From a virus: a stretch of DNA of 64,000 bases. Made by a program: the position numbers and the translations under genes. The notes beneath the pieces were generated by a model. That model was given only the letters and a program-made list of their open reading frames with translations. It did not search any database and was not told the origin of the DNA. Positions 1,745 through 13,414 of the stretch are shown piece after piece; position 1 is the first letter of the stretch, and every line of letters starts with the position of its first letter. The stretch lies in IMG/VR virus record IMGVR_UViG_3300021420_000017, positions 32,001-96,000 of that record; one strand, written 5' to 3'.

Positions 1745-1758
1745 TATTCCTGTCGCTG

Positions 1759-1791
1759 GTTACTCGACCGGCGTCTGGATAGCGTTCTGGC
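1759..1791 (+). promoter_or_regulatory. SigA-like promoter for a leaderless transcript of the 1792 gene
   Basis: TGGTTA-CTCG, 17-bp spacer, TAGCGT, ATG 6 nt downstream. Confidence 0.45.
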
Positions 1792-2262
1792 ATGGATGAC
1801 AACGAAGACATCGACTATGCCGTTGAGCTGCGCCGCCTCGGGGCCAAAGACCCACTGCGCCCGATGCGGGCTCGATGGTTTCTCGATGCAGACGGTTCGA
1901 ATCGTGCGCCCGTCCTGAACATCTACCCGCCCGATGGTGGGTCGATTGTGCGCACTCTGGGAGTCGGGGTGAACTTTCTTGGCCTGTGGAAGGAGCCGCA
2001 GGTCAACTACTATTTTGACAGCAACGAGATCGGCAAGACGTGGGAGCAGATCGCGGCGCATGCCTATGGCCAGGTGCTGCGCCAGCGAGCACTGGCCGAA
2101 CGACTAGGCCGGGTCGGAATCAGGCGCGAGCCCGAGCCCTACATCCTGGATGGCACTGAGCCCAACTCGGTCAAGCGCAGCATGGTGCTGAACTTCGATG
2201 AGCTGGATATGCTCTTGGACCTGGCCAAGGTGCCGCAGAGCGATCTCGACCTCTTGAAGTAG
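1792..2262 (+). CDS. Hypothetical protein (156 aa)
   Basis: ORF with high GC3 codon pattern. Confidence 0.75.
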   Translation: MDDNEDIDYAVELRRLGAKDPLRPMRARWFLDADGSNRAPVLNIYPPDGGSIVRTLGVGVNFLGLWKEPQVNYYFDSNEIGKTWEQIAAHAYGQVLRQRALAERLGRVGIRREPEPYILDGTEPNSVKRSMVLNFDELDMLLDLAKVPQSDLDLLK

Positions 2263-2266
2263 TGAG
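2255..2266 (+). promoter_or_regulatory. Putative late-promoter motif TGAAGTAGTGA
   Basis: Same motif at 48928 and 60849, each upstream of a virion-type gene. Confidence 0.55.
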
Positions 2267-2372
2267 AGGTCTTCCCGCGCCGGGCCGACCCCAGGACCCG
2301 ACCGCAGCGCGACCTGATCAGAGGCACCCGGCGCGGGAGCCCGTTCTGTCTAGTCCGCCCGGGAGGGATCTA

Positions 2373-5300
2373 GTGGTAAGAATCGAGCCTGCTCCGTCTC
2401 CTCAGCGAGTCCCGGGTGAGAGCACTGAGCACTTCCTCATGCGGCAAGCCAACTGGAAGCTGGATCGGGATTCCTTCCGGCGCCTGGCTGGATGGGAGGA
2501 CGAGAATGACGCTGACGACGGCCGGATGCAGCACAGACCGGCCGACCGGGATGGCACGCCGATCCACGATATGACCCATAACTTTCCATCCGATATCTAC
2601 ACACATCCGCACTACTACTCAGACATGACTGAGCCTTCCAATCAGAAGGCCCATGACGTCATTAATCGGGTGCGCGGCAATCCTGAGGCCAACGTGCACA
2701 TCTACCGGTCACTGCCCGCCGAGCATGCCCACCAGGGGTTCCGGCCAGGCGACTGGGTCTCGACCTCCAAGGACTATGCCAGGCAGCACGGCACCCACGC
2801 CAGCGACCCAAAACACGACTGGCCGGTCATCCACACCGTGGTCAAGGCCAAGGATCTGCACACCGACGGCGACGACTTCCGCGAGTTTGGCTACAACGGC
2901 GATGAGCGCAAGCCGGGCAACGTTGCCTTCAAGGGCGGCTACCACCAGGAGGTGCGTGATCATCCCGATGGTGGTGTGGTGCCGGTAGTGCATCGGGGTC
3001 CGACCCCGACGAAGGGATACACCTTCCGTAACAGCCAGCAGTCCTGGGATGGCAGCGCTGGCAGCGCTGGTCACATCACGGCCTATGCTCCCGATGAGTC
3101 CTACGCCGGGCATGCTACCTACTGGCACGGTAAGCCCGACGAGACGCACATCGACCCTGACCACCAGCATTTGGCCGATGAGCTGACCGAGCGCATGCAC
3201 AGGATGATCCCGAAGTTCCGGGAGGCATCTTTGCAGGTAGAGGCTGTCCCGGCTCCACAGAGAGCGCCTGGGGAGAGTATCGAGCACCTGCGCGCCAGGC
3301 ATGCCAACTGGCGGCTCGACCAGTGGGCGCTCCAGATGCTGGCTGGAGCGGACAAGATCGAGCACCCCTACCTGCAGGTGCTGGATCACGAACTGGAAGA
3401 TCTGGATGACGAGGGACTGTCAGCGCAGGCCGTCCAGGTGCCGCCAGCGGGCCTGAGTTTCACCCACGACGACATGGAGACTGGCGGCTCTAAGCATCCG
3501 ATCAGAACCCATCTGCGGGCGCATACGCCGGAGGACGGTCAGGTCGGCGCGCTCATCTATTACCCACCCAGGCGCCGCAATGGCGTGGTGACGATCCACA
3601 ACTTGCATGTTGAGCCAGATCAGCGGCGCCGGGGGATCGGTAGCGCGCTGATGGATGAGGTTCAGCGTCGCCACCCGGATTCGACCCTAGATCATGGAGA
3701 TAGGACCGCAAACGGGGAGGATTGGTGGGAAGGCTATACAGACGGCAAGACGGTGCGTCGGGGTCGCACGGCTTTGCTGGAGAGGGTCGAGAAGTTGGGT
3801 CCGATCATTCCGGTCGCGGGTGTTTTGGAAGGGTCAAGCACCCCCTACGACGCGACGTATCAGACCCCCGACGATCTGCATTATCTCCATCGAGATCCCC
3901 AAGGCGTGTACTCGCGCACGAAGGCTGGCCGATTGAGTGGATTTCTGAACTGGAACAGCCAGGGCGAGGTCGGATCCGTTCAGGTCCACCCGGATTACCG
4001 TCGACATGGGCTTGCGAGCGCTCTCTGGGAGCACGCCAAGATGGCCGAACCTAACTTGCACCACTCGACCACTTTGTCCAATGACGGTGCGGCCTGGGCC
4101 GAGAAGACTGCCGGGGCCGAAGGCGCTAATTACGCTAATATTCGTTTTCAGAAGGAGGATGGAGATTCTCATAACGAGTACTCTTTGTTTGCGGTGCATC
4201 CAGATCATGGGGATGTAGGGTATTTAAGGTACAGCGATGGAGGGGATCCTGCCGCTCAGGTTCAGGTTCACATGATGAGGGTGCGTCCTCAGCACCGACG
4301 CAGGGGCGTCGGTAGTGCGTTGATGGATGAGTTGCAGCGGCGATATCCCGGCGCTTCGATTGATCACGGTGACAGGACCGCCAACGGGGATGACTGGTGG
4401 GCTGGCTACTCCGACGGTAAGACGGTGCGCCGAGGTCGGACGGCTGCCGTGTCTCAGACCCACTGGCACGTCAGTGACAGTCGCAATCGGGACTCGATCG
4501 CCGAGCATGGGTTGGATCTTGCGCACAGCTCCGACGGTCAGCACATTTGGCTGCACGGAGATGAGGACGAGGCCCGCCAGTACCAGCAGATGGGCGCGAC
4601 TCGCGACATGCACGGCACTCCTGTGACCAAGGATCTCTACCGCGTCGACACCACCGGCTACCGGACTTCCAAGGAGCCGCACGGGGTCGCCGATATCGGC
4701 CAGAGGGTGGTCAAGCGATCCATCCCGCCCGAGCGCATTGAGCGCATCGAGTCGTCACTTGTTACTCGATCCCTTCTAGTGGAGAATGTTGTCTATGAGC
4801 ACCCACGGATCGATCCAGAAGTACTCCGCCGAGGATCTGGAGTCGGCTCGGTTGAACGGCATGTCGCCCGAGGAGCACGCGAAGATCCTCGACCGGATCA
4901 GCTACTTCGACACGCCGCATCCGGAGAGTGTGTGTCCTCCGCACATTTCTTCCCGGGAATGGCACGCGATGCAGCGGGCAGCCAGCAAGGCGCCACAGAG
5001 CCTCTGAGTTACGATCCACATCCGCAGATTGCCAGTGATCTTCGATTGCTGCCGGATCGGGTGCAGGATGCATTTCACGACCGCGTGGACGGGCTGCGTA
5101 GCGGCGAGCGGCATCCGTCAACTCATCCGCTTAAGGGCAAGCTTCAGGGCGGTTGGCATGGGACGTCGATCGGCGGGAATCAGTATCGGATGATCCATAG
5201 GGTGCGCGACGGGGTGTTGCAGGTGTCGGCCGCCGGTGCTCATGACGACGCTTACAACAACGCGATCAAGCGGCAGAAGGGTACTAACTCCTACTTCGGT

Positions 5301-8159
5301 AGTTGGATCGCCAGTGTCAATAGTCGATGGCGCGAGGGTCAGCGAAAGCGATGCCCCTGTGGGTTGATGGCCGAGTTCGATCCGCTTGATGGCTGGCAAC
5401 ACTTGGATGGGTCGATCAGCCACGAGGACGGTGGCGAGTCCGTCTCGCAGAGGATGTCTTGTACTGCCTGCTCCGGCACTGGCGAGCAGGGAACTGGGCA
5501 TGAGTGCTATCAATGTGATGGCACGGGGCTGCGCGAATATCAGAACCCATCAGTCGACAATGCCAATTCAGAAAATGAGCTGCTGGTGGGACGCGACGAT
5601 GGCAACGGCATCAAGCCCGTACTTGCAGCTCGATTTACTCCGGACCAAAGGGTGTTCACCCATACAGATGGCCTAGACCATCGCCTGTTCGACCAGGATG
5701 GACATCTTCGCCCCGAGGTGCGCAGCTACATCATGGGCTCGATCGAGCAGTTCTGGCGAGGTCGCTATCGTGACTGGGCGCACTGGGCGAAGGTCTACTT
5801 TGCTGGCTCAGAGGCTTCCATGTGGACGTCTCCGACACTAGAGGGCAACTCAGATTTCGATGTCCTCGTCGGCGTGGAGTATGACCGGTTCCGTGCGGCT
5901 AATCCGCAGTACGCCGATCTGAGCGACGCCGAGATCTCGGCTCAGATGAACCACGAGTTCGGGGCCGGGCTGAATAACTCCGAGACCTACATCACGGTCG
6001 ACGGAGTGTCTACGGGACCCTGGTCGCGCACGACCTACGTGAACGAAGATTCGTACGATATTAAGCGCATTAAGCCATATGCAGCCTATGATGTCGGCAA
6101 TGACCGCTGGGTCGTCAAGCCACCGGACCTGCCGCACTGGTCAGTCGATGACCTCCCCAAGCCCGTGGTGGCTGAGCTGCGTGCGGTTGAGGCCTACGCG
6201 AAGGCCGTGCTGAAGCTCCCCGAGCCAATGCGTACTCAGCAGGGTGCAGCGCTGTTCGAGCACCTGCACTCTGATCGGTCACGAGCCTTTAGCGATAGAG
6301 GAGAGGGCTGGATCGACCCCGGGAATCTCGCCGAGAAGTGGCTGGATATGGGTGGCTGGTGGGCTGAGCTGGTCGACTGTGCCCACCGAGCCAAGGAAGG
6401 GCTCGACCTCGCTCCCGCTGACTGGTCGAACACGCCGCCCGGCTATACCGCATCTGCTAGCAGTTTGCAGATCACTCATAAGTCTGAGACAAATCCTGAT
6501 GCCGATCCTGATGATGAATATGATAAAGATTGGGTGTTGCATACCATCGTTGGTCATGTGAATGGTCAACAAGTGGGGAAGTTAGAAGTTGATAAGCATC
6601 CTTCCGAGGCGCGAGGCGTCGTATCAGACATAGCTATTCATCCGGATCATCGACGCAAGGGATACGCCACTGCGCTATTGCAACATGCTCGCGAACATCT
6701 GGGTTTCCCGATCGATCATTCAGAGCGACTTACCGATGACGGTAAAGCCTGGTCGGATAAGGTCGGCCATATGGTTAAGTTGCCCAAGACCGAGACCTGT
6801 AAGTACTGCGATCAGCCCGCAACCGGGCGCGTGATCTGGGCAGAGGGTATGGCGTACATCCCAGTTTGTGACGAACATGAGCGGCGTGCGATCGACCATG
6901 TCGGCGACGACTATTGCAACACTCGGCCGATCCCGAAGACTGCGGTGCATCATCAGGCGATGCCATGGCATGAGCAGCGCGGGGGTGAGTCGGCCGAGGA
7001 GGTCGGAGCCAAGTCGGTGCGTCATGCGGGTTTCAAGGGATTTGTTGGGCCGAGTTATGACGATGAAAGCTACGGCGAGACTCACCATGATGGCGAGTTC
7101 GATGAGGATGCTTGGGATCGAGCTGCACCAGAGCCGACTTCGGCAGAGCATGCTCATTATGAACAGCATGACGAGTATCCAGATACTTATCACGAACGTC
7201 ATGAGCAGGCATATGGCCATGAGATCGACAAGAAGCGCCAGGAGGATGTGCCCGATCACGAGGACGACCACTTGCACCACTTCATCAGCGAGCACGGGGC
7301 TGAAGCCCCCGTGTGGACTAAGCACAGCAAGCAGCCAGTCCGAGTTGATCTGACCAAGGGTGTCTATGCGACCCAGAGCCATGTCGGGCAGAAACATATC
7401 GATCGATATTTGGCTGACCCGCATGATCAGGCCTGGCATTTGCAGTCGCATCCTGGCGCAGATAGTGATGGATACCTTGGTAACGGGCACCCGATGTTCG
7501 TCACCCATGAGGGGCGACTTCATGTCACAGAGGGGCATCACCGGGTCGCGGCTGCTCTCCAGCGAGGCGATTCTTCGATCGAGGGCTGGCATCACGATCT
7601 GGACAAGCACCCGATCGCGGAGAACTACCACACCCACGAGCCATGCGAGGACTGTCAGTATCACGCCAGCGGAGACGAGGAGAAGCGCCATTTTGCCTGG
7701 CGTCACATGGGGCTCAGGCGAGACGATCTTTACGGCACGGGCGACGTAGATAAGCTCTTCCACGGCAGCCCGACCACTTCGGCGCCCTTCACCCCTGCTG
7801 GCCGCTCCAAGCGCTATCACGACTATGACAAGGATCTGGTCGCGCAGGCGATCTCACACCCGGAGGATCACCACATGCAGGATGTGGATCCGCGCGAACT
7901 GCGTAGTACCCAGCCCAGCGTGATCCGGGCTGGAGTAAGCCATTACCTCACTGATAAGTACGACAAGACCGGGGAGACGTATGCAGACATGCACCATCCC
8001 GGCAATCGGCGGCCGATCGTCTATCACCGTGAGGCAGATGACAACAAGATCCTTCTGAGTGGACACCACCGTGCCGCTGCTGCTCTACTACAGGGTAAAC
8101 CACTTCAAGCGATCGTCGTGCGAGGCGGTTACGGAGAGCCGAGAGGAGGCACCTCATGA
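2373..8159 (+). CDS. Giant polyvalent protein (~1928 aa): ART, 4x GNAT, ART-like, RelE-like, Zn fingers, Pol-beta NTase, 2x ParB/Srx-like
   Basis: GGAGG SD at 2362 favours GTG 2373 over 2262. Motifs: IYR..STS..REF; HPDYRRHGLAS/QRRRGIGS/HRRRGVGS/HRRKGYAT; GSEAS..DFDV; EGHHR and SGHHR; CxxCxGxG. Confidence 0.9.
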   Translation: MVRIEPAPSPQRVPGESTEHFLMRQANWKLDRDSFRRLAGWEDENDADDGRMQHRPADRDGTPIHDMTHNFPSDIYTHPHYYSDMTEPSNQKAHDVINRVRGNPEANVHIYRSLPAEHAHQGFRPGDWVSTSKDYARQHGTHASDPKHDWPVIHTVVKAKDLHTDGDDFREFGYNGDERKPGNVAFKGGYHQEVRDHPDGGVVPVVHRGPTPTKGYTFRNSQQSWDGSAGSAGHITAYAPDESYAGHATYWHGKPDETHIDPDHQHLADELTERMHRMIPKFREASLQVEAVPAPQRAPGESIEHLRARHANWRLDQWALQMLAGADKIEHPYLQVLDHELEDLDDEGLSAQAVQVPPAGLSFTHDDMETGGSKHPIRTHLRAHTPEDGQVGALIYYPPRRRNGVVTIHNLHVEPDQRRRGIGSALMDEVQRRHPDSTLDHGDRTANGEDWWEGYTDGKTVRRGRTALLERVEKLGPIIPVAGVLEGSSTPYDATYQTPDDLHYLHRDPQGVYSRTKAGRLSGFLNWNSQGEVGSVQVHPDYRRHGLASALWEHAKMAEPNLHHSTTLSNDGAAWAEKTAGAEGANYANIRFQKEDGDSHNEYSLFAVHPDHGDVGYLRYSDGGDPAAQVQVHMMRVRPQHRRRGVGSALMDELQRRYPGASIDHGDRTANGDDWWAGYSDGKTVRRGRTAAVSQTHWHVSDSRNRDSIAEHGLDLAHSSDGQHIWLHGDEDEARQYQQMGATRDMHGTPVTKDLYRVDTTGYRTSKEPHGVADIGQRVVKRSIPPERIERIESSLVTRSLLVENVVYEHPRIDPEVLRRGSGVGSVERHVARGAREDPRPDQLLRHAASGECVSSAHFFPGMARDAAGSQQGATEPLSYDPHPQIASDLRLLPDRVQDAFHDRVDGLRSGERHPSTHPLKGKLQGGWHGTSIGGNQYRMIHRVRDGVLQVSAAGAHDDAYNNAIKRQKGTNSYFGSWIASVNSRWREGQRKRCPCGLMAEFDPLDGWQHLDGSISHEDGGESVSQRMSCTACSGTGEQGTGHECYQCDGTGLREYQNPSVDNANSENELLVGRDDGNGIKPVLAARFTPDQRVFTHTDGLDHRLFDQDGHLRPEVRSYIMGSIEQFWRGRYRDWAHWAKVYFAGSEASMWTSPTLEGNSDFDVLVGVEYDRFRAANPQYADLSDAEISAQMNHEFGAGLNNSETYITVDGVSTGPWSRTTYVNEDSYDIKRIKPYAAYDVGNDRWVVKPPDLPHWSVDDLPKPVVAELRAVEAYAKAVLKLPEPMRTQQGAALFEHLHSDRSRAFSDRGEGWIDPGNLAEKWLDMGGWWAELVDCAHRAKEGLDLAPADWSNTPPGYTASASSLQITHKSETNPDADPDDEYDKDWVLHTIVGHVNGQQVGKLEVDKHPSEARGVVSDIAIHPDHRRKGYATALLQHAREHLGFPIDHSERLTDDGKAWSDKVGHMVKLPKTETCKYCDQPATGRVIWAEGMAYIPVCDEHERRAIDHVGDDYCNTRPIPKTAVHHQAMPWHEQRGGESAEEVGAKSVRHAGFKGFVGPSYDDESYGETHHDGEFDEDAWDRAAPEPTSAEHAHYEQHDEYPDTYHERHEQAYGHEIDKKRQEDVPDHEDDHLHHFISEHGAEAPVWTKHSKQPVRVDLTKGVYATQSHVGQKHIDRYLADPHDQAWHLQSHPGADSDGYLGNGHPMFVTHEGRLHVTEGHHRVAAALQRGDSSIEGWHHDLDKHPIAENYHTHEPCEDCQYHASGDEEKRHFAWRHMGLRRDDLYGTGDVDKLFHGSPTTSAPFTPAGRSKRYHDYDKDLVAQAISHPEDHHMQDVDPRELRSTQPSVIRAGVSHYLTDKYDKTGETYADMHHPGNRRPIVYHREADDNKILLSGHHRAAAALLQGKPLQAIVVRGGYGEPRGGTS
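4795..5007 (+). CDS. Nested 70-aa ORF in the +1 frame of the giant gene; candidate antitoxin
   Basis: GGAG SD at 4781; TGA overlaps the start of the RelE-like domain; the main-frame translation here looks non-protein-like. Confidence 0.55.
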   Translation: MSTHGSIQKYSAEDLESARLNGMSPEEHAKILDRISYFDTPHPESVCPPHISSREWHAMQRAASKAPQSL

Positions 8160-8395
8160 GTACGAGCTGGTGGATCACCCCTACCCTTATGCTCGGGGCA
8201 CTCCCGGCCAAGATCTACCGCGCCAAGCGTGTGAGCAGTCCTGATGAGGCCCTGTCGGCCGTCCAGGCGGGTTATACCGCAGTGCTGCCTGACGGGGCCT
8301 GGGAGGCCGCGACGCGCGTCCTGCTCGATCTGGGGCTCTCGCGCCACGATGCCGAGGATCGGATCCGCTTCGCTCGTACCGGAGCGACCGCGTGA
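8156..8395 (+). CDS. Hypothetical protein (79 aa)
   Basis: ATGA overlap with upstream stop; GGAGG SD. Confidence 0.7.
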   Translation: MSTSWWITPTLMLGALPAKIYRAKRVSSPDEALSAVQAGYTAVLPDGAWEAATRVLLDLGLSRHDAEDRIRFARTGATA

Positions 8396-10211: not shown

Positions 10212-10798
10212 CAGTGGGATCCATGAGTTATGGCGCTCGCCAGGATGGCGTACCAGCTCGTTAGATCGATCCCCCCGCTGAGGGCTGTGCGTTGCGCCCC
10301 GTCTTCCTCACCGCGCCGATGACGCATCAAGGCATATTCGATCACCATCTGGTGCTCAGGCGAGTCGTAGCCGAAGCGCTGAGCCCGGGTCATGCCAGCC
10401 TCGACGTCGATCGCGTCCACGTTAACGCCGGGCGTAAGCGGGCTGCCGTCCGAGGTCCGGCCGCGACTTACCGAAGTTATCCGCATGAGCCACGCCTTTT
10501 CCTCGCTGGCTATTAGTTCAGCGGCCAGCGCGGCCCACGCCTCGTTGAGGGTCTCGAACAGGTCGCCGTGGCAGGCATCGCGACCTGTGTTTGTGCGCAC
10601 GTCCCAGCCGCATTCTCGATCGTGCTCGATGCCACCGGGGCAATAGCTGTGATTCGCACCAAACTTGCCCTCGCGCATTGGGTGCGGACCTTCGCAGAAT
10701 GACACCTCACGCGCCCGACCTATTGCGTAGCCACGAGGGTTCGTGACCCACTCGCCGTCCTTGAAGTCGAGCGTGAGCCCGTGTCGGGTGCGCTTCAT
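10211..10798 (-). CDS. Hypothetical protein (195 aa)
   Basis: TGATG coupling to upstream gene. Confidence 0.7.
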   Translation of the reverse strand: MKRTRHGLTLDFKDGEWVTNPRGYAIGRAREVSFCEGPHPMREGKFGANHSYCPGGIEHDRECGWDVRTNTGRDACHGDLFETLNEAWAALAAELIASEEKAWLMRITSVSRGRTSDGSPLTPGVNVDAIDVEAGMTRAQRFGYDSPEHQMVIEYALMRHRRGEEDGAQRTALSGGIDLTSWYAILASAITHGSH

Positions 10799-11702: not shown

Positions 11703-11926
11703 CAGGCCACCTCACCCTCACTGTCGTTATACCAAGGACCGGTGATTTGGGCGCTGTGTACCACCTCGACCTCGGCGAACATTTCCAATGCCTTCCCTGT
11801 GCTCCAGAGCATCGTGATTTCGGATTCGGCCTGCCGACGGGAGTAGGCGGTATGAATGTGGTATTGATTCACGAGCATCGAATCGGGGTCGATTACTTTC
11901 ATGCGAATGCCCCAGTAGAGATCCAT
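11702..11926 (-). CDS. Hypothetical protein (74 aa)
   Basis: TGATG coupling. Confidence 0.6.
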   Translation of the reverse strand: MDLYWGIRMKVIDPDSMLVNQYHIHTAYSRRQAESEITMLWSTGKALEMFAEVEVVHSAQITGPWYNDSEGEVA

Positions 11927-12807
11927 CAGGTCACCTCCTCAGTCGGGTCCAGGCCGATGCCCGCAGCGATCGTGTTGACTGCTTTGAGCACGTTCTGGGC
12001 GGCCGCCTGCAGCACCTCGGGCTTACTGTTGGCCCAGCCTGCGACGTAGCTGATCGAGCTGGCGTCCAGGTCGAGCCCGAGCAGCCCGGCGAGCACGTAG
12101 GCAGCTGATTCGGCTTCGGTCTCGGCCAGGCCCCGGTGGGCCACGTACTCGGCCGAATCCTTGTGCAGGAGTGCGTGCGCCGCCTCGTGCAGTAGTACCG
12201 CGAGCTGGGCATCGATACCGAGCTTGTCACTCAGCGCGATGCGCTTGCCTACGTGGCTGGTGTAGCCCTCCAGGCCGCTCCGGGTCTCCTCGGTTTCGAC
12301 GATCCAGCCCTCCACGGCGAGCCAAGTCTTGAGCAGGTTCAGTTGGAATCCGTGGTCGCTGCTCTCGGGCAGGACGCAACCCTGATCGGGCAGATCATCG
12401 CCCTCTGTTTGGGAGACGTCGAAGACGCTCAGGATGGGGAAGGTTGGGATCTGTGACTCCTCGTCCTCGCCGGTGGCGGGATTGGTCTGTACTACCTTGC
12501 GGCTGGAGTAGCCCAGAATCTTGATGGCCCTCTCGCCCTTGCGGACCTGGCGACCGAACTCCTGCCACTTGCGGAATCCGGCCACGCGGGTGGCGTCCGG
12601 GCGCTGGGTGAGGATCAGCATCTGGTTGTTGAAACTGTACTTGCGGAAGGCTCTTGTGAAGTTCAGGTAGGCGATCCACTCAGCCGAGTTGGACAGGGTG
12701 GTGATCTTGCCGTTCAGGGTCTCCAGCAGCGCCTCGCGCTCGGCGCGGTGTTGCTCGGGGGTCTTGCTCGCTTTCCTGGCGGCGAGACGGGTCTTCATGG
12801 CGGTCAT
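11926..12807 (-). CDS. ardC: ArdC-like anti-restriction protein (ssDNA-binding N-terminus plus HExxH metallopeptidase-like domain)
   Basis: FRKYSFNNQMLI..Q.P.ATRVAGFRKW..GRQVRKGE; LLHEAAH; ETEAESAAY; GAGGAG SD before ATG 12807. Confidence 0.85.
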   Translation of the reverse strand: MTAMKTRLAARKASKTPEQHRAEREALLETLNGKITTLSNSAEWIAYLNFTRAFRKYSFNNQMLILTQRPDATRVAGFRKWQEFGRQVRKGERAIKILGYSSRKVVQTNPATGEDEESQIPTFPILSVFDVSQTEGDDLPDQGCVLPESSDHGFQLNLLKTWLAVEGWIVETEETRSGLEGYTSHVGKRIALSDKLGIDAQLAVLLHEAAHALLHKDSAEYVAHRGLAETEAESAAYVLAGLLGLDLDASSISYVAGWANSKPEVLQAAAQNVLKAVNTIAAGIGLDPTEEVT

Positions 12808-13295: not shown

Positions 13296-13414
13296 TTGGC
13301 GACTGAGGACAACTCTACCGGACGGTGATCGAGTAACAAGTGTGCTCTGTGATGATCGACAGTGAGCGAGTCGTTCGCTTGTTACTCGATCATGGTTGGG
13401 TAATGTATGACCTG
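13296..13414. promoter_or_regulatory. Back-to-back promoters sharing a perfect 15-bp inverted repeat
   Basis: TGATCGAGTAACAAG (13326-13340) / CTTGTTACTCGATCA (13378-13392); each TTGTTA has a 16-bp spacer to TAGAGT or TAATGT. Confidence 0.75.

Follow-up and report, generated by a model that had tools for sequence, protein, structure and literature searches.

A small reading frame inside a giant polyvalent gene

The DNA stretch dealt with here, hereafter the window, covers 64,000 nucleotides, namely bases 32001-96000 of the 146,650-bp IMG/VR virus record IMGVR_UViG_3300021420_000017, and near its beginning lies a giant open reading frame (ORF), whose phage-encoded product unites at least two effector domains of unrelated kinds in a single chain and is in this sense a polyvalent protein. 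One of these domains resembles RelE/ParE toxins, and directly upstream of its first codon a second, much smaller ORF is embedded in the +1 frame of the giant one (Table 1). In type II toxin-antitoxin (TA) operons, the antitoxin gene lies just upstream of the toxin gene, often overlapping with it, and its product binds the toxin. How can such an arrangement exist in the middle of a phage gene that runs through it without any stop codon? A preliminary description of the window, made from the letters of the DNA alone, had pointed out the nested ORF together with a GGAG sequence in front of it and a 14-nucleotide motif further upstream, and had regarded the ORF as an antitoxin gene still expressed from the alternative frame. 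All three elements are present where they had been located.

Table 1. Features in and around the giant polyvalent gene, in window coordinates
Feature	Position	Strand	Remarks
Nested +1-frame ORF	ATG 4795 to TGA 5007	+	70 codons plus TGA 5005-5007
GGAG, Shine-Dalgarno-like site	4781-4784	+	10 nt before ATG 4795
Junction CTGA	5004-5007	+	main-frame CTG 5004-5006 (first residue of the domain) overlapped by nested TGA 5005-5007
RelE/ParE-like (BECR-type) domain	5004-5273	+	weak family matches; conserved residues in four homologues
Main-frame read-through linker	4772-5003	+	about 77 aa, R/G/A/P-rich, non-coding-like codon usage (-10 bits)
Giant polyvalent ORF	2262-8159	+	1965 aa, without internal stop
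Domain order of the giant protein			phrog_2579 region, four GNAT, domain 4455-4750, linker, RelE-like, CxxC finger, NTase-like, ParB-like C-terminus
14-mer CTTGTTACTCGATC	4758-4771	+	extended -35, with TTGTTA at 4759-4764; exact match to both arms at 13327-13391
Weak -10 candidate GAGAAT	4782-4787	+	17 nt after TTGTTA, 7 nt before ATG 4795
Perfect 7-bp inverted repeat ATCGAGT-N11-ACTCGAT	4746-4770		overlaps the 14-mer and the -35
Divergent promoter region	13327-13391		two inverted exact 14-mers, each followed by N16 and a TANNNT hexamer
Promoter-like site of the giant-gene operon	1757-1794	+	TGGTTACTCG, 17 nt, TAGCGT, 6 nt, ATG 1792

Codon signal of the nested frame

Which of the overlapping frames has shaped this sequence? 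The preliminary description had called the main frame just before the RelE-like domain apparent gibberish, and the composition of the DNA agrees with this impression. Over 4737-5036, the GC contents at the three codon positions of the main frame are about 0.8/0.5/0.45, compared with 0.68/0.45/0.67 for the whole giant ORF. When codon usage was scored by a log-odds model built from 77 further long ORFs of this genome, only one of the 55 segments of 70 codons along the giant ORF, that at 4782-4991, favoured the +1 frame (+21.4 bits, main frame -6.1), and a +1 score as high as this is reached by just 0.13% of such segments in real genes of the genome. Over the exact extent of the nested ORF, the scores are +23.9 bits for the nested frame, -10.0 for the main frame and -54.7 for the third. 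The signal switches from the main to the nested frame exactly at 4795: the main frame scores +3.7 and the nested frame -12.5 in 4735-4794, the nested frame +12.6 and the main frame -5.3 in 4795-4860, and the nested frame again +12.6, with the main frame at -7.0, in 4861-4932. These scores support the nested +1 frame as the frame that shaped the sequence from 4795 to about 4930.

An antisense gene is ruled out as the source of this signal by the negative scores of all three minus-strand frames. Programmed +1 frameshifting into the nested frame was also considered and rejected: no slippery or stop-stimulated site was found, a TAG in the same frame at 4777-4779 bounds the nested frame on its upstream side, and the nested ORFs of the relatives described below have a Shine-Dalgarno sequence and an ATG of their own. 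In the phage, an additional ATG of the nested frame is located at 4786. It is unlikely that an assembly frameshift, or a pair of compensating assembly errors, created the pattern, because 2200-8200 is spanned, at depth 17 and with zero differences and zero gaps, by an independent contig of a second assembly (a Logan contig, probably from the source reads). RNA structure at the nested start is unremarkable (z = 0.38), the linker read in the main frame has no similarity to the proteins of the relatives, and no paralogue of the nested ORF/RelE-like cassette was found elsewhere in the genome.

The RelE/ParE-like domain and its junction with the nested ORF

The TGA of the nested ORF had been described as falling on the first codons of the RelE-like domain, and it indeed overlaps the main-frame CTG with which the domain opens. 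The resulting CTGA has the geometry of the ATGA or GTGA overlaps between start and stop codons, with a non-start codon, CTG, at the place of the start. The homologue P0017, when aligned with the others, starts two codons past 5004, so that a free-standing toxin gene would be expected to begin at 5004.

The domain itself matches the PADLOC model CARF_RelE at E=3.6e-4, within its RelE portion, TIGR02385 (RelE_StbE) at E=0.084 over positions 11-87 of 88 (13.4 bits, cut-off 27.9), and the RelE structure 9g12 in PDB at E=0.57 over 66 residues; its nearest clusters in the ESM Atlas are ParE_toxin families, at 0.93-0.94. Pfam gives no match for the phage copy, and one homologue matches PF05016 at E=0.019. 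Several weak matches of this kind suggest that the domain at 5004-5273 belongs to the RelE/ParE superfamily. Residues H43, R64, H67, R68, H82, Y86 and R92 (numbered from 4998) are invariant in the four homologues, and this set of His, Arg and Tyr residues fits an active site of the RelE type. A PDB profile search with the alignment of homologues added nothing, and Foldseek and VIA-align with the structural model of the domain mentioned below gave no clear match, with RelE chains appearing only at E above 0.1. Members of the superfamily fold as an N-terminal strand, a helical hairpin and an antiparallel sheet of 3-4 strands, and the RelE branch cleaves mRNA on the ribosome by means of basic and aromatic residues.

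The same layout in two Streptomyces elements

The RelE-like domain has homologues in P0010 (60% identity) and in P0021 and P0017 (about 35%), which were available only as proteins. A tblastn search of plasmids with P0010 reached pRLB1-9.1 of Streptomyces sp. RLB1-9 (154-kb record), in which an annotated 828-aa coding sequence (CDS) contains two tandem RelE-like domains (E=3.5e-13 with P0017; 1.6e-14 with P0021). Directly upstream of the first of these, an unannotated ORF of 48 codons lies in the +1 frame, with GGAGG five nt before its ATG, and it ends in a TAG that overlaps GTA, the first main-frame codon of the domain (GTAG). The GC content at third codon positions (GC3) of the main frame is 0.93-1.0 throughout this CDS except in 10299-10478, where it drops to 0.42 and that of position 1 goes up to 0.82-1.0. 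The second relative, a 155.7-kb contig of Streptomyces sp. NPDC021080, holds a nested ORF of 38 codons in the matching layout, again with GTAG, inside an ORF of 1191 aa. In all of the phage, the plasmid and the contig, a small gene is adjacent to and overlaps the sequence of the RelE-like domain, as is often the case in type II TA, and the first codon of the RelE-like domain is a non-start codon (CTG, GTA and GTA, respectively).

The preliminary description had proposed to follow conservation along the frames, and conservation does follow the +1 frame. Between the plasmid and the contig, the z-score of similarity is 13.3 for the nested frame, 3.5 for the main frame and 0.05 for the third, and the ratio of nonsynonymous to synonymous substitution rates (dN/dS) by the Nei-Gojobori method is 0.56, 0.92 and 1.48, respectively, over 38 codons. 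The nested protein of the phage aligns from Met23 with that of the plasmid (39% over 46 aa, pairwise E=0.006, shuffle z=4.4, p=0.0015), while the main-frame peptides of the two are unaligned (z=0.4). Residues invariant in all three nested proteins include M23, P25, E26, A29, I31, R34, T40 and P41.

Other searches for relatives were negative. No relatives were found by blastn of 4300-5700 against phages, in viral contigs searched with the RelE domain, the nested ORF, the giant protein, P0021 and two alignments of homologues, in the metagenome-contig searches, or in the alignment search of genome contigs; tblastn with the RelE-like domain found none in phages, and in plasmids only annotated HigB/RelE genes at E of about 0.5. 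A word-based search for proteins similar in length to the RelE-like domain also gave none. Apart from the nested ORF, pRLB1-9.1 has a stretch of 312 nt at 6763-7074, between two large genes of the same array, for which no gene is listed; the PLSDB gene table is incomplete, and the stretch could hold a small unannotated gene.

The nested protein and its predicted partner

What kind of protein is encoded by the nested ORF? Modelled alone, it has three helices at residues 12-21, 25-39 and 53-64 (predicted local distance difference test, pLDDT, 70). The search of families and structures which the preliminary description had suggested for this 70-aa product turned up neither a known antitoxin family, with RelB, ParD/RHH, Phd/YefM, HigA/HTH and PaaA2 considered, nor a significant fold match. 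Foldseek with the model of the nested protein listed ribbon-helix-helix antitoxins at E of at least 2.5, which is non-significant, and an identity as a ribbon-helix-helix antitoxin was dismissed for this reason and on account of the versions in the relatives, which are too short for it. Matches obtained by phmmer among 1.84 billion representatives were also set aside as spurious, as they are repeat proteins only, with scores that are sums of 8-25 weak repeat matches.

A model of the nested protein in complex with the RelE-like domain is more informative. The interface score ipSAE is 0.80 in three of three runs, compared with 0.45 for the best control, with a partner pLDDT of 82, 88-96 contacts and a run-to-run agreement of at least 91%; the pass mark applied is reached by 51 of 78 solved complexes and by 2 of 108 mismatched pairs. 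It is to be noted that complexes of RelE with its antitoxins are among the training data, so that the pass may partly mirror likeness to them. Mere memory of a solved complex is less likely because the nested protein has no detectable known family. The modelling thus supports binding of the nested protein to the RelE-like domain.

Promoter-like signals upstream of the nested ORF

Exact copies of CTTGTTACTCGATC number three in the whole genome, at 4758-4771 (+), 13378-13391 (+) and 13327-13340 (-). The 14/14 identity with the arm at 13378, already noticed in the preliminary description, holds, and the copy at 4758 resembles that at 13378 also further upstream (TGAGCG, AGTCGT). Judged from its sequence and position, the 14-mer at 4758 is a genuine motif, and is well placed. 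The caveat that no canonical -10 follows it at the usual spacing stands as well, GAGAAT being the best candidate. The 7-bp inverted repeat is a possible operator. GGAG-driven initiation on the long mRNA would be an alternative route to the nested protein.

Looser copies of the motif are found at 1757 in the window and at genome position 9687 (window coordinate about -22313). Together with the divergent promoter region they appear as a family of promoters with an extended -35 of the form (C)T[TG]GTTACTCG, a spacer of N16-17 and TANNNT, the members being window 1757-1794, window 13327-13391 and genome 9687. The site at 1757 suggests a leaderless start for the ORF at 1792-2262, the immediate neighbour of the giant ORF. 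At 4807-4822, 34 nt downstream of the 14-mer and within the nested ORF, the 14-mer region recurs in a degenerate inverted form (12 of 16 complementary), which may be due to chance.

A toxin-antidote cassette in an effector gene?

We propose, with a probability of roughly 0.6, that the nested ORF and the RelE-like domain are a conserved toxin-antidote cassette built into a polyvalent effector gene of the phage. Ribosomes translating the giant ORF would cross 4772-5003 as a floppy linker and then make the RelE/ParE-type domain, which is probably a toxin that would cut mRNA in the next host. Ribosomes starting separately at ATG 4795 would produce in the +1 frame a helical protein of 70 aa, either from the GGAG of the long transcript or by way of a promoter-like site inside the gene, one that shares its motif family with the operon promoter. 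This small protein would bind the RelE-like domain and hold it inactive as long as the polyprotein is produced in the producing cell, and the toxin would become active after delivery, once its partner is lost or degraded. The proposal is founded on the switch of the coding signal between frames, the geometry of start and stop codons, the motif match, the recurrence of the layout with conservation of the +1 frame in the relatives, and a predicted interface that scores above its controls. Expression, toxicity, neutralisation, delivery in virions and release of the toxin from its antidote are steps that we infer.

Some observations weigh against this proposal. As to the coding signal and its conservation, the last third of the nested ORF (4933-5004) has no clear frame signal, the dN/dS of the nested frame rests on 38 codons, the nested protein of the phage is not significantly similar to that of the NPDC021080 contig (p 0.17), and a main frame open across the nested gene is expected by chance in about 9.5% of cases (synonymous resampling; off-frame segments). 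On the protein side, the nested protein has no antitoxin-family match in Pfam, PHROGs, NCBIfam, PADLOC, the ESM Atlas or a PDB profile search, the RelE-family matches of the neighbouring domain are all below curated cut-offs, and a single-sequence AlphaFold2 model of that domain, a helix followed by four strands, is poor (pLDDT 58). As to expression, GAGAAT lacks the first T of TANNNT, a scan for consensus promoters calls no promoter in 4400-5400, and the available RNA contigs cover 2835-3079 and 4326-4476 only, none of them extending over 4758-5270.

Could the nested protein be real and bind the RelE-like domain, and yet be something other than an antidote? It might be a chaperone assisting folding or packaging, or a regulator acting on the 14-mer or the inverted repeat and tying the effector to the promoters at 13.3 kb. 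Such a role is in accordance with its lack of an antitoxin family, with the presence of the 14-mer at both places and of a 7-bp inverted repeat covering the -35, and with the weak, non-significant fold matches to ribbon-helix-helix antitoxins and to the Arc repressor; besides, the toxin activity of the RelE-like domain is only predicted. However, the nested ORFs of the relatives, at 38-48 aa, are too small for a DNA-binding domain plus a tail for binding the partner, the nested position and the overlap of stop and start are typical of type II antitoxin genes, and the modelled interface spans most of the small protein. We regard this explanation as unlikely, although it is the one among the alternatives that survives best.

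Slightly less likely still is an incidental read-through. According to it, an upstream polyvalent gene with its stop codon was once followed by a small gene and by a gene headed by RelE, the stop was lost in this lineage, and the giant fusion appeared without any designed function, the small gene being an ordinary antitoxin gene or its intact relic. The RelE-like domain is in fact at or near the N-terminus of the polyvalent proteins P0010, P0017 and P0021, the codon usage of the main-frame linker is unadapted, and no selection for read-through is required, because the main frame has the above chance of about 9.5% to be open anyway. Against this, two diverged Streptomyces elements likewise read through the nested ORF in long ORFs, and the non-start first codon means that the domain is made only within the long protein. 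Because the frame is open in three diverged elements, all of them with a non-start first toxin codon, the read-through seems to be kept rather than accidental.

One may also imagine that a compensating pair of frameshifts scrambled an antitoxin-like domain which was formerly in frame, so that the +1 ORF is a ghost of the old frame. In-frame fusions of antitoxin and toxin do exist in the RelE/ParE superfamily (PMC11980606), and the codon signal of an old frame would linger. On the other side, the shifted segment opens with a ribosome-binding site and ATG after a same-frame TAG and stops exactly on the first codon of the toxin, the boundaries in the plasmid and the contig match those in the phage, and no relative carries the small-protein sequence in frame, all of which makes this history very improbable. 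Just as improbable, and already disfavoured, is the view that high GC content alone left the nested ORF open by chance: stop-free stretches of 75 codons occur in about 9.5% of off-frame segments, but a codon score of that size occurs in 0.13% of them, with the main frame negative there, and the product, which has a positional homologue conserved in the relatives, comes out of the modelling as a helical protein docked on the domain next to it.

If the toxin-antidote cassette is accepted, a further step may be considered, for which our expectation is considerably lower and clearly below even. The nested gene and the read-through linker may together be a conserved 'self-arming' device, in which the antidote, produced next to the toxin domain from a single mRNA, keeps it inactive in the producing cell and is then lost when the polyprotein is processed, packaged or threaded into the next host, so that the RNase becomes live only on arrival. 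The toxin, having no start codon of its own (CTG or GTA), would then exist solely as cargo, and the exact 14-mer in common with the divergent promoters at 13.3 kb and the promoter family of the operon would tie the supply of antidote to the programme of the phage. If true, such a device would be a general answer to the question of how phages can safely produce the toxins they inject.

Possible origins of the cassette

The preliminary description had supposed that a whole TA operon was captured, so that its toxin became a domain of a polyprotein. The TA-like layout has stood up in the position of the small gene, the overlap at its stop and the modelled binding; the capture of a whole operon into a polyprotein has not, in view of the three relatives that are headed by RelE. 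Because the RelE-like domain heads polyvalent proteins in these three, a history of joining is as good as one of capture. Two origins fit equally well: either an upstream polyvalent part was joined by read-through to a small gene followed by a RelE-headed gene, or the whole cassette was inserted. When the N-terminal extension of P0010 was reverse-translated and examined for overlap with a homologue of the nested ORF, p was 0.11 for the +1 and 0.055 for the +2 frame.

To judge from their arrangements, domains have clearly been shuffled within this polyvalent family. P0014 and P0016 are colinear with the giant protein at both ends and lack aa 508-1117, a block which consists of two GNATs, the domain 4455-4750, the nested region, the RelE-like domain and the CxxC finger, and which would correspond to an insertion or a deletion of the size of a cassette.

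Relation to known systems

With type II TA operons such as relBE, yefM-yoeB, dinJ-yafQ and parDE, the phage locus shares a small gene directly upstream whose stop codon overlaps the first codon of the toxin in another frame, a small helical product predicted to wrap the toxin, and an inverted repeat over a promoter-like site. Unlike in these operons, the putative toxin of the phage opens with CTG instead of a start codon and forms one of the inner domains of a protein of 1965 aa, the antitoxin-like gene is wholly overlapped by the giant frame and belongs to no known antitoxin family, and the nested protein, whose versions in the relatives are 38-48 aa long, has no evident DNA-binding domain.

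Phage lambda offers a familiar case of such embedding in Rz/Rz1, where the smaller gene lies entirely within the larger one, in its +1 frame, and the products of the two cooperate in lysis as a spanin. The likeness lies in the embedded frame and in the cooperation of the two products; the lambda pair is a spanin and not a toxin with its inhibitor.

In the polyvalent proteins known from phages and conjugative elements, GNAT, NTase and ParB domains occur together with RNase domains of the BECR fold, and these proteins are proposed to enter the next host with the DNA (Iyer et al., 2017; PMC5512222). The giant protein resembles those treated there in being a large multi-domain protein encoded beside packaging genes, in possessing a BECR-type RNase-like domain, and in the shuffling of domains among its relatives. 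It differs in that its RNase-like domain seems nearer to the classical RelE/ParE toxins and has a nested partner gene, whereas, as far as the description of the PBECR families in that paper goes, these are presented without mention of an immunity or antidote gene (PMC5512222). No zincin-like peptidase domain is among the Pfam matches of the giant protein.

Antidotes inside toxin genes are also known from the Rpn 'genes within genes' TA systems, in which the antidote has a separate internal start (Zhong et al., 2023, bioRxiv 10.1101/2023.05.02.539157 / PNAS; PMC10400984). There, RpnS is an in-frame C-terminal part of the toxin and serves host defence, while the partner in the phage is encoded in another frame, has an unrelated sequence and accompanies a phage effector. 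Fused antitoxin-toxin genes of the RelE/ParE type (PMC11980606) likewise unite toxin and antidote in one gene, and do so in frame and as a single polypeptide instead of in two frames and as two products. A further precedent in the literature is a synthetic relE entangled in ilvA. Full-text searches on polyvalent RelE and on overlapping, embedded or intragenic antitoxins returned no description of a natural out-of-frame antitoxin inside a polyvalent gene.

An out-of-frame partner gene inside the effector gene would offer one explanation of how a producing cell survives the RNase and other toxic domains of polyvalent proteins. It would at the same time illustrate neatly how nature can code in two frames at once, with a functional protein in one of them and a linker that is merely tolerated in the other, and the small proteins binding RelE-like domains would make up a family of their own, a new one. 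Such nested genes are invisible to gene callers: the RefSeq CDS of pRLB1-9.1 and a 1906-aa database protein for the phage both read through them. A rule for finding more of them is suggested by this: in giant phage genes, GC3 or the codon signal should change locally right before a toxin domain.

The giant gene and its surroundings

The virus record, that of a soil phage, has a completeness of 94% (CheckV) and a GC content of 0.60, and its closest database matches are actinobacteria phages. A gene for the terminase large subunit is located at 58-1491, upstream of the giant ORF, with two small ORFs between them. In the giant protein, PHROGs assigns a 'ParB C-terminal' region (phrog_2579) to aa 80-219 and Pfam recognises four GNAT domains; the NTase-like region and the ParB-like C-terminus are common to the relatives. 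The domain at 4455-4750 (aa about 732-830) had been labelled as a second ART-like domain, a label that could not be upheld, as the domain has no sequence match in Pfam, NCBIfam, PADLOC or PDB. It is nearly absent among the relatives found, P0016 alone reaching aa 795.

Two contigs of a soil metatranscriptome from a different study are identical to the parts of the giant gene at 2835-3079 and 4326-4476, which points to the presence of the phage or its transcripts in a second sample; carry-over of DNA is possible. On the minus strand at 11926-12807, near the divergent promoter region, there is an ArdC-like anti-restriction gene (phrog_7245, E=9e-16), whose product also matches a metalloprotease weakly. 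Finally, the giant protein contains two copies of a leader-like segment (..PQR.PGES.EH....ANW.LD...LAG), encoded at 2400-2500 and 3250-3350 (aa about 46-80 and 330-365), which may mark the boundaries of units in a processed polyprotein.

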